Origin: Minisyncoccia bacterium
GTDB taxonomy: Bacteria > Patescibacteriota > Minisyncoccia > Phycocordibacterales > Zambryskibacteraceae
Direction: 5' to 3'
DNA: 64,000 nt
Assembly (NCBI GenBank): GCA_049651785.1
Contig: JBASCT010000022.1
Coordinates: 44-64,043 of the forward strand
This document shows positions 8,829-12,356 of this stretch, one piece after another (positions within the stretch are counted from its first letter, which is position 1; every line of letters begins with the position of its first letter). Made by a program: the position numbers and the translations under genes. A model generated the notes under the pieces. It made no database searches. It had not been told where the DNA came from and saw only the letters and a list, made by a program, of their open reading frames with translations.

Positions 8829-10823
8829 GTGTCGGAAATGGCCGGAAAAAAGGGCGAAAATCTTAACCCCGAGCAGAGACGGGCGGTGCTTTTGACCGAG
8901 GGACCGCTCTTAATCCTTGCCGGCGCGGGCGCCGGCAAGACCAAGACCATTGCCGAGAGAATCAGACACTTGGTAACAAAAGGGGTTGCGCCGTCAAAAA
9001 TTTTGGCCATCACCTTTACCAACAAAGCGGCGCGCGAGATGCGGGAGAGAGTGGAAAATATTTTGAAAGAAGACAAGGAATTAAACAGGCCGATATCAAG
9101 CGCCGAGCGGCCGTTCGTCAGCACTTTCCACTCGCTCGGGGTCCACATTCTTAGGGAGCAAGCCGCGAACCTTGGCATCAAAAAATATTTTTCCATTTTC
9201 GACCGTGATGATTCAAAAAAGGCGGTTAAAGAGGCGCTTCTCGCGCTCGGCTTTGACCCAAAAACACATGAACCGGGTAAAATTCTCTCGATAATCTCGA
9301 AAGAAAAGGGTGCCGGCAGGAACTTCGAGAACTATGAGGCCTCGCGGCACGGCTACTTCGGGAAAGTGGTCGCGGCAGTCTGGCCCGAATATGACAAGGC
9401 GCTCAAAAGAGAGGGGGCGCTCGACTTCGACGACCTTATTTTGAAAACCCGTGACCTCTTGCGGACCAGGGATGATGTCAGGGATTACTATCAGAATGTC
9501 TGGAGTCACATCCACATCGACGAATATCAGGACACCAACCGCGTTCAGTACGAGATCTCGCGCCTTCTTGCCGACAAACATAAAAATATTTGCGTTGTCG
9601 GGGACGCCGACCAGAATATTTACTCCTGGCGCGGTGCCGAGATAAAAAATATTCTTGATTTCGAGAAGGATTATTCGAATACCTCGGTGATTGTCCTCGA
9701 GGAGAACTACCGTTCAACGAAAAATATCCTTGAGGCGGCAAATAATGTGATAGAGAAGAATAAAATCAGGCGCGAAAAAAATCTTTTTACCGCCAATGAA
9801 GCTGGCGAGAGGATAAGTCTTCTCGCGGGCTTCGATGAGGCGAGCGAAGCGCTCTTGATCGCCGAGAAAACTGGCGAACTCATCCGTGGCGGCACCTTGC
9901 CGGGTGAGATTGCGGTACTCTTCAGGGCAAACTTCCAATCGCGGGCGCTCGAAGAGGCGTTCATGAATCTCTCAATTCCCTACGAGCTTGTCGGCACGCG
10001 CTTTTTCGAGCGCAAGGAAGTCAAAGACATAATTTCTTACCTGCGCCTCGCCCTCAATCCCGAGAGTCTCTCCGATTTTAAGCGGGTGGCGAACGTGCCG
10101 ACGCGGGGCTTGGGCAAAACAAGTATTCTTAAAATCGCGATGGGACAAGAGGGGACTCTGCCGCCCGCCACAAAGAGAAAATTAGAGAGTTTCAGGACCC
10201 TTCTTAAGAGAATCGAAAAGGTGGCGCAGGAGAAAAAACCTAGTGAAACAATCGCTTTTATCATCAAAGAGACGGGCCTTGAAGAGGAGTGGAGGCCCGC
10301 CCGACCGAACGGTCGTTCGGGCGGGGGGGGTGGAGACGAAGGACTTTCGCGCCTTGAAAACGCCTATGAGTTGGTGAATTTCGCTTCAAGGTACGATGAA
10401 GTTGGGCCAGAGCGTGGAGTCCTTGAGCTCCTCTCGGAGGTGGCTCTGCAGAGCGACCAAGATAATATGCGCGAAGACGGTAGTGCCGTGCGCCTTATGA
10501 CAGTACACGCCTCCAAGGGGCTCGAGTTCGATGTTGTTTTCATCACCGGTTTGGAAGAAGGGCTCTTCCCGCATTCAAAAGTCGATGATGACGAGACGGC
10601 GCCCGAAGAGGCCGAGGAGGAGCGGCGGCTTTTCTATGTGGCACTCACCCGCGCGAGGAAAAAGGTTTTCTTGACTTACGCCGAGACAAGAAATATTTTC
10701 GGCTCGCGTCAGGTGGGTCTGCCTTCCACATTTCTCTCGGACATTCCGAACAAACTTTTTGAAGAAACTCTTACTAGTGAGCATGGTGGCGAGAGAAGGC
10801 CGCTTCTCGAAATAGAATTTTAG
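8829..10823 (+). CDS. pcrA: ATP-dependent DNA helicase, UvrD/PcrA/Rep family
   Basis: 664 aa; motif I GAGAGKTKT, motif II DEYQDTN, and motifs V/VI (TVHASKGLEFDVVF; LFYVALTRARK). Confidence 0.9.
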   Translation: MSEMAGKKGENLNPEQRRAVLLTEGPLLILAGAGAGKTKTIAERIRHLVTKGVAPSKILAITFTNKAAREMRERVENILKEDKELNRPISSAERPFVSTFHSLGVHILREQAANLGIKKYFSIFDRDDSKKAVKEALLALGFDPKTHEPGKILSIISKEKGAGRNFENYEASRHGYFGKVVAAVWPEYDKALKREGALDFDDLILKTRDLLRTRDDVRDYYQNVWSHIHIDEYQDTNRVQYEISRLLADKHKNICVVGDADQNIYSWRGAEIKNILDFEKDYSNTSVIVLEENYRSTKNILEAANNVIEKNKIRREKNLFTANEAGERISLLAGFDEASEALLIAEKTGELIRGGTLPGEIAVLFRANFQSRALEEAFMNLSIPYELVGTRFFERKEVKDIISYLRLALNPESLSDFKRVANVPTRGLGKTSILKIAMGQEGTLPPATKRKLESFRTLLKRIEKVAQEKKPSETIAFIIKETGLEEEWRPARPNGRSGGGGGDEGLSRLENAYELVNFASRYDEVGPERGVLELLSEVALQSDQDNMREDGSAVRLMTVHASKGLEFDVVFITGLEEGLFPHSKVDDDETAPEEAEEERRLFYVALTRARKKVFLTYAETRNIFGSRQVGLPSTFLSDIPNKLFEETLTSEHGGERRPLLEIEF

Positions 10824-10842
10824 TAATCTAGCCAACGCCCCC

Positions 10843-11523
10843 GGTTGACACGGTTGACGCTCGGTGTCAACATGAGAGAATAAATTCATGAGAAATATCA
10901 GGTTGGCGGAAGGTGAGTTCTATCACGTCTATAACAGAGGCGTAGACAAGAGGGTGGTCTTTTCTAATAAAAAAGACTTTGATCGGTTCTTGGAGGGTAT
11001 GAAAATATTTAACACGAAAGAAAATGTGGGTAACTTAACTCGCCACAGCAGTACAGAGGGAGAAGAAAAATTGGTTGATTTTGTTGCTTATTGTATTAAC
11101 TCGAATCATTTCCATTTTCTAATTACACCTCTAACAGAAAAAGGGTTGGAAAAATTTATGCACAAATTGTGTATGGGGTATTCGAAATATTTCAACGCAA
11201 AATATCATAGATCAGGCGCTCTTTTCCAGGGAAAATTTAAGGCCATCCATGTTGATACCAATGAGTATTTGTTGCATCTCAGTGCTTATGTAAATTTGAA
11301 CGAAAAAGTTCATAGACATGAGGGGAACAGTAGGTCCAGTTGGGAAGAGTATGCAGAAAGCGCTACAACTGGTTTATGTAAAAAAGACATTATACTTGGT
11401 CAATTTAAAAATCGAGGCGAATATGTAACGTTTGCTAAAAAAGCACTAAAACATATTGTTGATAAAAAATTATCCTTAAAAGACTTGGAATCCAACTCAT
11501 ATCCGTTGACACTCGGTGTCAAC
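10843..11523 (+). mobile_element. IS200/IS605-like element: Y1 (HUH) transposase gene flanked by subterminal hairpins
   Basis: Left end GGTTGACACGGTTGACGCTCGGTGTCAAC (10843-10871); right end GTTGACACTCGGTGTCAAC (11505-11523). The roughly 680-bp size matches IS200. Confidence 0.6.
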
Positions 11524-11541
11524 ATAAAGATAAAGAAATGA
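10888..11541 (+). CDS. tnpA: IS200-like / REP-associated tyrosine (Y1, HUH) transposase
   Basis: 217 aa; HUH motif NSNHFHFLI and catalytic tyrosine region HLSAYVNLN. The stop overlaps the rsmA start (ATGA). Confidence 0.75.
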   Translation: MRNIRLAEGEFYHVYNRGVDKRVVFSNKKDFDRFLEGMKIFNTKENVGNLTRHSSTEGEEKLVDFVAYCINSNHFHFLITPLTEKGLEKFMHKLCMGYSKYFNAKYHRSGALFQGKFKAIHVDTNEYLLHLSAYVNLNEKVHRHEGNSRSSWEEYAESATTGLCKKDIILGQFKNRGEYVTFAKKALKHIVDKKLSLKDLESNSYPLTLGVNIKIKK

Positions 11542-12356
11542 GGGCAAAAAAATCACTCGGACAACATTTTCTAAAATCGGAGAGGGCTCTCGGAAAAATC
11601 GTAGAGGCGGGAGAACTTAAGTCGGGCGATGCGGTACTCGAAATCGGTCCGGGTATGGGAGCTCTGACACAAAAAATGTTGGAAACAGGAGCAAGAGTTA
11701 CCGCCGTTGAAAAAGATGATGGGTTGTTCGGATTTTTAAAAAATAAATTTGAAAAAGAAATCGTTGAAAAAAAATTAACCTTAACTCACGCCGACATTCT
11801 GGATTTAGAAATTTCTTACTCCTTACTTCCTGCTCCTTACTACAAGCTCATCTCCAACATTCCCTACAACATTACCGGCGCAATCCTGGAAAAATTCCTG
11901 TCGACAAAATATCAGCCGGAACGAATGGTTCTTCTCGTTCAGAAAGAAGTGGCGGAAAGAATTGTCGCAAAAGATGGCAAAGAAAGTATTTTGTCACTTT
12001 CCGTAAAAGTTTATGGCAAACCAAGATATGTTGAGACCGTCAAGGCCGGCTCATTTGCGCCGAGACCGAAGGTGGATTCGGCAATTATCGCCATAGAAAA
12101 TATTTCCAAAGAATTTTTCAGAAAATTTCCGGAAAAAGAGTTTTTCGCGCTCCTTAAGGCAGGTTTCAAATCCAAGCGTAAAAAACTCTCTTCAAACCTC
12201 TCCAATCTTTTCGGTAAAAGTGAAATTAATGAGATTTTCAAGAAACTTGGCATAGGCAAGAACGCTCGGGCGGAGGACTTGAATCTCGATTTGTGGCAAA
12301 AATTGGCTGAAAATCTGGAAAAAATGGAAAATAAGAAGAATTTGACGAGTGAATAG
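11538..12356 (+). CDS. rsmA: 16S rRNA (adenine1518/1519-N6)-dimethyltransferase
   Basis: 272 aa; LGQHFL, SAM-binding VLEIGPGMGALT, and NIPYNIT motifs. Confidence 0.9.
   Translation: MRAKKSLGQHFLKSERALGKIVEAGELKSGDAVLEIGPGMGALTQKMLETGARVTAVEKDDGLFGFLKNKFEKEIVEKKLTLTHADILDLEISYSLLPAPYYKLISNIPYNITGAILEKFLSTKYQPERMVLLVQKEVAERIVAKDGKESILSLSVKVYGKPRYVETVKAGSFAPRPKVDSAIIAIENISKEFFRKFPEKEFFALLKAGFKSKRKKLSSNLSNLFGKSEINEIFKKLGIGKNARAEDLNLDLWQKLAENLEKMENKKNLTSE

Follow-up and report, generated by a model that had tools for sequence, protein, structure and literature searches.

In a Minisyncoccia bacterium, a 714-nt segment separates pcrA from rsmA (positions 10824-11537 of the window, i.e., the whole 64-kb stretch of contig JBASCT010000022.1 analyzed here, whose coordinates are used throughout). 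This segment is probably a single-gene cassette encoding a member of a Patescibacteria-specific family of HUH nucleases that resemble the REP-associated tyrosine transposases (RAYTs; REP, repetitive extragenic palindrome) and correspond to class 2 TnpA_Y1 proteins. The cassette consists of a left hairpin, a promoter, the Y1 gene, and a right hairpin, with the hairpins lying 29 nt (left) and 14 nt (right) from the borders of the insert, and no tnpB gene is present with it. Comparison with relatives, whose loci are labeled L001 and so on and all come from metagenome assemblies, points to repeated gain, loss, and replacement of this hairpin-bounded unit at one junction. A sequence-only reading of the same DNA had described a Y1/HUH gene with a cognate hairpin at each end, the right one inside the 3' end of an open reading frame (ORF) whose stop overlaps the rsmA start as ATGA; every one of these features was found where that reading had placed it.

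The protein carries HFHFL at residues 74 to 78, with N73-H74-F75-H76 encoded at 11104-11115 and the HUH motif at 11107-11115, and SAYVNLN at residues 132 to 138, in which the catalytic Tyr134 is encoded at 11287-11289. It matches Pfam Y1_Tnp with 32.8 bits (cutoff, 23) and is alone in its 90% cluster. Its approximately 2000 homologues, roughly 215 residues long, have source names that are all Patescibacteria (Zambryskibacteria, Giovannonibacteria, and Minisyncoccia); no relatives were found in viral contigs, and therefore no phage vector is indicated. In an alignment of 40 homologues, N73, H74, H76, Y134, and N138 are invariant. All 40 members match a single NCBIfam model, REP_Tyr_transpos, always under the equivalog cutoff, and none of them matches an IS200 model. 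Against the curated RAYT equivalog NF047646 (cutoff, 80 bits), the window protein scored 25.3 bits (E = 1.1e-5), and the best E value in the family was 6e-9, still short of the cutoff. Neither the single protein nor a 40-member profile retrieved a relative from the PDB sequences, so the relation to solved Y1 enzymes comes from the fold search alone. The AlphaFold2 model (pLDDT 80.6, falling below 50 in residues 203-217, which the right hairpin and its spacer encode) gave as its top Foldseek match 4er8_A, the Escherichia coli TnpA_REP bound to a REP hairpin (E = 4.5e-5; TM-score of 0.60 on the target), followed by TnpA of IS608 and ISDra2.

According to Quentin et al. 2018 (PMC6006769), class 1 (IS200) is marked by DH[VI]H and Y-x-x-x-Q and class 2 (TnpA_REP) by Y-x-x-x-N-P, and the members of subclass 2.1 are long, have a C-terminal extension, and are reported without REPs. 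The motif set of our family, NH[FY]H / FQ / Y[VI]NLN, appears to fit class 2 of that scheme, although the proline of the class 2 signature is not conserved and the window protein has E139 in its place; the apparent resemblance to subclass 2.1 is judged by motifs alone. By motifs, hidden Markov models, and predicted fold, the protein is closest to the REP-associated tyrosine transposases and is thus RAYT-like rather than IS200-like, as the sequence-only reading had proposed.

The right palindrome of the window is perfect, with an 8-bp stem and a 3-nt loop, and occupies codons 206-212 (PLTLGVN). The left palindrome is composite, being a hairpin with a 5' tandem copy of its left arm, GGTTGACAC (10843-10851), which could pair instead with 10864-10871. 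Together, the two hairpins form a 21-nt direct repeat with 20 of 21 positions identical, GTTGAC[G/A]CTCGGTGTCAACAT at 10853-10873 and 11505-11525, and their feet read CC-GTTGACAC...GTGTCAAC-AT. Folded as single-stranded DNA, the left composite reaches -7.4 kcal/mol (z = -1.5), its inner hairpin -5.4 kcal/mol (z = -3.8), and the right hairpin -6.9 kcal/mol (z = -3.6). With up to three mismatches allowed, the pattern occurs at only these two places in the 64 kb, compared to 0.09 matches in shuffled sequences (0 of 100 shuffles reached two). An Rfam scan of 10600-11800 returned nothing credible. A role as intrinsic terminators was set aside, since no T-run follows either copy and the terminator scan called none there.

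The same arrangement was seen across the family in a test of 80 further metagenome loci, 78 of which had enough flanking sequence. An exact stretch of at least 14 nt is shared between the 5' and 3' flanks in 62 of the 78, compared to 4 of 300 randomly paired flanks, and the shared sequence is always a hairpin, with the consensus (C)ACTTGG-N4-N3-N4'-CCAAGT(G). The window has a shortened form of it, the GTTGACAC type, to which the ACTTGGACACCGAGTGTCCAAGT of L190 may be compared. A median of 14.5 nt separates the end of the left copy from the ATG, and the right copy starts a median of 2.5 nt past the stop; because most family members start the right hairpin just past the stop, its position inside the ORF in the window is seen as derived. 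Orthologous loci whose proteins are 72-88% identical keep both hairpins unchanged to the last base in otherwise diverged DNA, apart from the 3-nt loop, which is sometimes inverted. Distant loci have different palindromes, yet each locus has the same palindrome on both sides. Among 41 distinct hairpins, compensatory changes were found in 11 of 12 stem pairs, and 92.9% of cells were paired, compared to 72.5% in shuffles and 31-43% with slid partners; as these hairpins were selected as palindromes, it is the sharing between flanks that provides the independent test. Because wobble pairs are nearly absent and the loops of left and right copies are in direct orientation in 27 cases and inverted in 22, the constraint evidently acts on DNA, in a strand-symmetric manner, and not on RNA; an RNA-level role of the hairpins was set aside on the same two observations.

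Many Y1 genes contain, in addition, one or two cognate hairpins in frame, with hot spots near residues 60 and 150. Counting those in the next gene, 38 of 50 Y1 loci have such further copies; intragenic examples are at L142:3150 and 3429, L155:3159 and 3438, L010:10183, L011:10156, and L190:3447. These copies account for the variable RHGVST and SRRLPETT stretches of the protein alignment. They are absent from the window's Y1 gene, in which no remnant of an internal in-frame hairpin was found at up to three mismatches.

The gene order pcrA-Y1-rsmA was found in 17 loci, down to 48% Y1 identity, and the Y1 gene lies in other contexts in 49 loci. In each of 14 loci with an occupied junction, an insert of 665-820 nt fills precisely the interval from the pcrA stop to the rsmA ATG. 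The synteny ChlI / LysM-M23 / pcrA / rsmA is shared by four relatives that lack both the Y1 gene and the hairpin, and the distance from the pcrA stop to the rsmA ATG is 1 nt in these empty sites, in one case 25 nt. Whether relatives have pcrA directly followed by rsmA, the comparison named in the sequence-only reading, is thus answered both ways: these four do, and in others the pcrA-Y1-rsmA order recurs together with the ATGA overlap.

Several lines of comparison set the cassette apart from its flanks. Nucleotide identity between the window and L001 is 50-75% through pcrA and rsmA and 85-97% inside 10869-11520. At four-fold-degenerate sites, the same pair is 38% identical in PcrA, 82% in Y1, and 38% in RsmA (the RsmA count for L001 is small, n = 29), and the pair L143 and L212 is 55%, 96%, and 57% identical, respectively, with the left identity border at the pcrA stop. 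The PcrA of L001 is closest to those of hosts with a different cassette type (L143, for example, with 75% identity in PcrA but 52% in Y1), whereas its Y1 is closest to that of the window (89%). In neighbor-joining trees, empty sites and the two cassette types are interleaved among the hosts, the two types occur in sister hosts, and the PcrA and Y1 trees are incongruent. The GC content of the cassette is 36.8%, compared to 49% for the window; at third codon positions (GC3), it is 36.7%, compared to 61% in pcrA and 57.7 ± 7.5% in 23 long ORFs, i.e., about 2.8 standard deviations below the latter. The rsmA gene has a GC3 of 42.5%, about 2 standard deviations under the long-ORF mean, and lies outside the high-identity tract shared with L001.

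Because of the empty sites, the four-fold-site contrast, the low GC3, and the incongruence with the PcrA tree, we read the cassette as horizontally exchanged at this junction. Judged from these comparisons, the cassette is far younger than its flanks, and this host seems to have acquired it fairly recently, from a lower-GC donor and at a site in recurrent use. One locus may retain a trace of such an exchange. Immediately 5' of the left hairpin of L002, a locus with a type A cassette, lies half of a hairpin of type B (the half is CCCCACTTGGAG, the type-B hairpin CCACTTGGAGGCTCAGCCTCCAAGTGG; L002:3940-3966, also L130), which suggests replacement in situ with a break near the hairpin tip.

The left hairpin is built into the predicted promoter of the gene. 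In the window, the promoter call combines a -35 element TTGACG (10854-10859), a 16-nt spacer, TG (10873-10874), and a -10 element GAGAAT (10876-10881), with the ATG 6 nt after the -10 element. Across the family, a TAnnnT hexamer directly follows 34 of 49 distinct left hairpins but only 1 of 47 right hairpins (Fisher's P = 4e-13), and in 30 of these 34, it is preceded by TGn contributed by the 3' foot of the hairpin. The 5' arm gives TTGGNN at a 17-nt spacing, and the distance from the hexamer to the ATG is 6 nt in 18 loci and 7 nt in 3. The 5' arm supplies the -35 element of this predicted promoter and the 3' foot the TG of an extended -10 element. Since the ATG is only 6 nt after the -10 element, a leaderless Y1 mRNA is predicted, and no Shine-Dalgarno motif of the Y1 gene was found among 62 loci. 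This geometry puts the presumed binding site of the enzyme over its own promoter, from which we infer autoregulation: binding of Y1 at the left hairpin would repress the overlapping promoter.

Copies of the hairpin away from Y1 genes were sought by scanning 185,579 species genomes (596 Gb) with the pattern GTTGACAC-N3-GTGTCAAC. As the 117 matching stretches are about the chance number (estimate, ~139), single matches (e.g., in Vibrio) were left uninterpreted and within-genome clustering alone was used; the matches concentrate heavily in a handful of small Patescibacteria genomes. Where the loop is TCG/CGA, as in the window, a genome has 3-7 copies, two of which flank the Y1 gene. A sister type with extended stems, GTTGACAC-CTG/CAG-GTGTCAAC, reaches 6 to at least 17 copies per genome, and in the metagenome-assembled genome with at least 17, it lies beside a distant Y1 gene (L091, 35% identity), flanking it. 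Dispersal in related genomes is therefore REP-like but low-copy, in line with the further hairpins that the sequence-only reading had tied to a RAYT, and from its copy numbers the sister type looks like a fuller REP-like expansion. The sister-type loci are L018, L034, L040, L045, L046, L053, L064, L072, L076, L091, L097, L118, and L125 in MAG133 (JAYEKQ01); L035, L069, L092, L112, and L120 in JACOYH01; and L047, L055, L095, L105, and L109 in CAZHQQ01.

The orphan copies are mostly within long ORFs, where only two stop-free frames are used, VDTECQ or LT(LG/PS)VN. Their host genes encode TopA, ArgS, LeuS, TsaD, SodA, a reverse transcriptase, and RsmA. The copies in TopA (L077:6501-6519 and L124:6545-6563) and in ArgS (L037:293-311 and L111:6807-6825) are each at the same position in two genomes; the others are in LeuS (L052:5059), TsaD (L025:855), SodA (L028:6514), the reverse transcriptase gene (L058:3354), and RsmA (L071:7686, L002:5083, and L212:3921). 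The leucyl-tRNA synthetase of L052 (3334-6111) also has an embedded NUDIX domain at residues 339-470. As REPs in frame inside tnpA_REP of subclass 2.4 (PMC6006769) and intragenic REPs in repair and tRNA-synthetase genes (PMC3733652) are both on record, the intragenic copies support the analogy with RAYTs and are not new in themselves.

Unrelated genomes also have clusters of the same 8-3-8 palindrome, its loops variable and its flanks conserved: in Clostridia JAGBIF01 (L026, L032, L042, L049, L079, L084, L100, and L108), in Metaruminococcus (L023, L065, L067, and L121), and in Vibrio (L086, L087, L101, L102, L113, and L127), where it takes the form AAAGG-hairpin-CCTTT beside short tandem repeats. 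The Clostridia, Metaruminococcus, and Vibrio stretches showed no relative of Y1.

In the mechanism that we propose, the Y1 protein would bind its own palindrome as a hairpin extruded on single-stranded DNA, and Tyr134 would cut next to or in the hairpin, with the ends then rejoined, as in solved relatives. Such activity would keep the flanking copies identical and would seed the orphan hairpins, and the hairpin-bounded unit would be excised and inserted seamlessly, as in the "peel and paste" of IS200/IS605 elements. At empty sites, pcrA and rsmA, 1 nt apart, are presumably translationally coupled, a link that an insertion would break. Both type B and the clade of the window have lost the stop in front of the right hairpin, and the ORF reads through the hairpin to end in ATGA; because rsmA has no Shine-Dalgarno sequence (none was seen before its ATG in the window), this ending plausibly restores coupled translation of rsmA. 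A bolder form of the proposal, possible in our judgment but far from established, is that a RAYT-type enzyme here still moves its own gene. The cassette would then be an autonomous, single-copy, site-specific integrative element whose homing target is the pcrA-stop/rsmA-start junction or a hairpin already present there, with replacement of cassettes of other specificity, half-hairpin scars, a self-regulating leaderless promoter, repair of the operon by ATGA, and in-frame colonization of essential genes as its marks.

Tandem duplications of one arm stand beside full hairpins in the window (10843-10851) and at L011:10656-10665, in the right flanks of L203, L184, and L180, and at L124:6574-6589. 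Half-arm duplications of this kind, next to many hairpins, may be by-products of Y1 activity. In L001 (3925-3950), the last pcrA bases are tandemly duplicated at the left junction (TTCTAGTA-C-TTCTAGTA), and the left junction of the window has a weaker echo of this (TTTTAGTAATCTAG); the L001 duplication may be a carried-over donor flank.

A number of observations weigh against our interpretation. No hairpin or scar is kept at any of the four empty sites, where an att-like footprint had been expected; no conserved cleavage motif, terminal or guide tetranucleotide, or target-site duplication was found, nor any conservation of the bases 5' of the hairpins, the position of an IS200-type guide; and the distance from the pcrA stop to the left hairpin varies from 2 to ~50 nt. 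The window itself holds just the two flanking copies, and the dispersal counts come from related genomes. The trees are neighbor-joining trees without support values, and chimeric assembly of a conserved 0.7-kb segment is possible, although it would have had to happen repeatedly, in independent samples. That the Y1 enzyme moves the cassette or cuts the hairpins is inferred by analogy. A covarying palindrome is also expected of a dimeric operator on double-stranded DNA, and borders just as sharp would result from homologous recombination via the conserved last ~25 nt of pcrA and first ~45 nt of rsmA.

The last two points belong to the main rival for the exchange step, in which DNA taken up by the cell would recombine through the conserved pcrA and rsmA ends, the palindromes would be a double-stranded promoter/operator on the 5' side and a second operator on the 3' side rather than transposition substrates, and Y1 would have another role on single-stranded DNA. 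The precise promoter geometry of the left palindrome, the almost purely Watson-Crick and strand-symmetric stems with their mixed loop orientations, the location of the identity borders in the most conserved flank stretches, the scar-free empty sites, and the competence genes reported to be common in Patescibacteria (PMC12455944) all agree with it. It leaves unexplained, however, the palindrome past the stop, which in most loci is without a -10 box, the in-frame copies inside Y1, TopA, ArgS, LeuS, TsaD, and RsmA, and the half-hairpin scars. Moreover, flanks that are just ~63% identical at the nucleotide level make a poor recombination substrate, and solved Y1 enzymes bind single-strand hairpins (PDB 4er8, 2a6o, and 2xm3). 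Altogether, we regard this explanation as unlikely, if the most serious of the alternatives.

Less likely again is a stationary, domesticated RAYT, inserted between pcrA and rsmA long ago and inherited only vertically, with the hairpins as relics and a host function for the gene in the operon. RAYTs are typically single-copy and vertically inherited (PMC5581495), the window has a single copy, the catalytic residues are conserved family-wide, and relatives with as little as 48-55% protein identity have the gene at the same position with the same ATGA overlap. To that extent, the description of the element as stably embedded and domesticated in the sequence-only reading has a basis; that it is simply stable is not supported, in view of the empty sites, the four-fold-site contrast, the low GC3, and the tree incongruence. 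The four-fold-site values of both locus pairs strongly disfavor vertical descent. Empty sites interleaved among occupied hosts, two cassette types in sister hosts, and the GC3 of the cassette relative to its host also speak against it, and relic hairpins that differ from lineage to lineage would not have kept their left and right copies identical.

An ordinary, active IS200/IS605-family insertion sequence (IS), seen once in the window by chance, is the least probable of all: a 714-nt unit carrying one tnpA and a hairpin near each end, a Pfam Y1_Tnp match, precise presence and absence with no target duplication, and evident horizontal movement would suit it, but the motifs are NHFH and Y-x-x-x-N, no IS200 model is matched, each of 92 loci has one Y1 match and the 64-kb window only one with no second copy or other evidence of a multicopy IS, the same junction rather than scattered sites is used every time in this host group, the hairpins are perfect symmetric palindromes also found as orphans, and tnpB is missing.

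Among known systems, the cassette family, which we interpret as RAYT-like and mobile, is best compared to the RAYT/TnpA_REP REPtron (E. coli YafM, PDB 4er8; class 2 of Quentin et al. 2018; groups of Bertels et al. 2017). The two have in common the HUH and single-Tyr core, the closest fold and HMM match, a single gene flanked by its own palindromes that co-evolve with the protein, and palindromes at other sites, for our family in related genomes, including in frame in the transposase gene (subclass 2.4) and in other genes (PMC6006769 and PMC3733652). In contrast to RAYTs, the cassette has no 5' GT[AG]G or CGTC tag, the family GTGG being on the 3' side within the stem; its family hairpin is a perfect symmetric palindrome of 8-10 bp with a 3-nt loop that flips; its Y motif is Y-x-N-L-N without a conserved Pro; and its protein stays under the NCBIfam equivalog cutoff (25 vs 80 bits). 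Hairpin copies are few, two in the window and 3-7 per related genome, far below classical REPs. RAYT groups 2 and 3 are described as vertical, whereas the cassette gene is horizontally exchanged and its presence is polymorphic at a fixed site.

With the subclass 2.1 TnpA_Y1 proteins, or TIRYTs of TIRtrons (TIR, terminal inverted repeat; De Nocera et al. 2013; Quentin et al. 2018), the family shares NH[YF]H, FQ, and Y[IV]xLN-, a length above 200 residues, and a C-terminal extension, and their flanking repeats, which form small families, are possibly self-complementary and may overlap gene ends. That subclass is reported without REP-like hairpins and has the TIR consensus GGGGWSAS, whereas the flanks of our family are short hairpins, ACTTGG-N11-CCAAGT, also found as orphans; membership is judged from motifs only.

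The IS200/IS605 elements (IS200, IS608, and ISDra2) resemble the cassette as ~0.7-kb units with hairpins near both ends, a Y1 transposase, and a promoter in the left end, and the seamless presence or absence of the cassette is what single-strand "peel and paste" would give. They differ in a TnpA of ~150 residues with DH[VI]H and Y-x-x-x-Q, compared to 217 residues with NHFH and Y-V-N-L-N; the cassette, moreover, is single in the window and in each of 92 loci and recurs at one junction, no guide or cleavage tetranucleotides are identifiable in it, and its left and right hairpins are identical perfect palindromes. Rickettsia palindromic elements and intragenic REPs are alike in placing a cognate palindrome in frame inside essential genes, with two stop-free frames only; compared to the Rickettsia elements, the cassette palindrome is much shorter (19-23 nt) and tied to an identifiable Y1 gene, and none lies in the window outside the cassette.

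The features of the locus are collected in Table 1; the left border of the insert is the pcrA stop TAG (10821-10823).

Table 1. Features of the pcrA-rsmA junction (window coordinates)
Feature	Position	Strand	Evidence
pcrA/uvrD helicase gene	8829-10823	+	Pfam UvrD-helicase 5.6e-85, UvrD_C 3.1e-67
Probable cassette, 714 nt, pcrA stop to rsmA ATG	10824-11537	+	Occupied versus empty sites; coinciding identity step versus L001; GC
Tandem duplicate of left arm, GGTTGACAC, putative scar beside left hairpin	10843-10851	+	Half-arm duplications in relatives
Left cognate hairpin, GTTGACGC-TCG-GTGTCAAC, one G.T mismatch	10853-10871	+	Same place in L001, L002, L005
Predicted sigma-70-type promoter overlapping left hairpin	10854-10881	+	Promoter scan of window; family-wide hexamer counts
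Y1 HUH (RAYT-like) gene, 217 aa	10888-11541	+	Pfam, NCBIfam, alignment of 40 homologues, AlphaFold2 model, fold search
Right cognate hairpin, GTTGACAC-TCG-GTGTCAAC, perfect, within 3' end of ORF	11505-11523	+	Pattern scan, repeat comparison, folding
ATGA overlap of Y1 stop TGA and rsmA start ATG	11538-11541	+	Same 4-nt overlap in L001, L002, L005, L212
rsmA (16S rRNA dimethyltransferase), right border of insert	11538-12356	+	Pfam RrnaAD 2.6e-53

In a Zambryskibacteria relative (MHWM01), the Y1 gene at L015:2075-2721 matches as two pieces in different frames, being either a frameshifted pseudogene or an assembly error.

In the literature searched, no paper connected Patescibacteria with RAYT, TnpA_REP, or IS200, and one preprint mentions a RAYT-type KEGG Orthology (KO) entry next to rbcL in an archaeon. 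The variant that we consider new is a RAYT-like cassette, present as a single copy, whose leaderless promoter is embedded in the cassette itself and which is exchanged at one fixed junction of an operon. In annotation, Patescibacteria members labeled "transposase" are better read as RAYT-like, and the last ~12 residues of the window ORF are to be read as hairpin-encoded read-through. Attention is also due to short in-frame palindromes, through which the proteins of ultra-small bacteria vary.

The role of RAYTs, and whether they are domesticated or mobile, is unsettled, and the best-studied groups are immobile and vertically inherited. The pcrA-rsmA junction offers a natural experiment on this question, being found empty, occupied, or occupied by a cassette of different hairpin specificity, and the covariation of protein and hairpin provides many matched enzyme-substrate pairs for biochemistry. 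For the host, the locus indicates that a selfish or semi-selfish unit can sit in a tightly coupled housekeeping operon of a minimal genome without breaking it.

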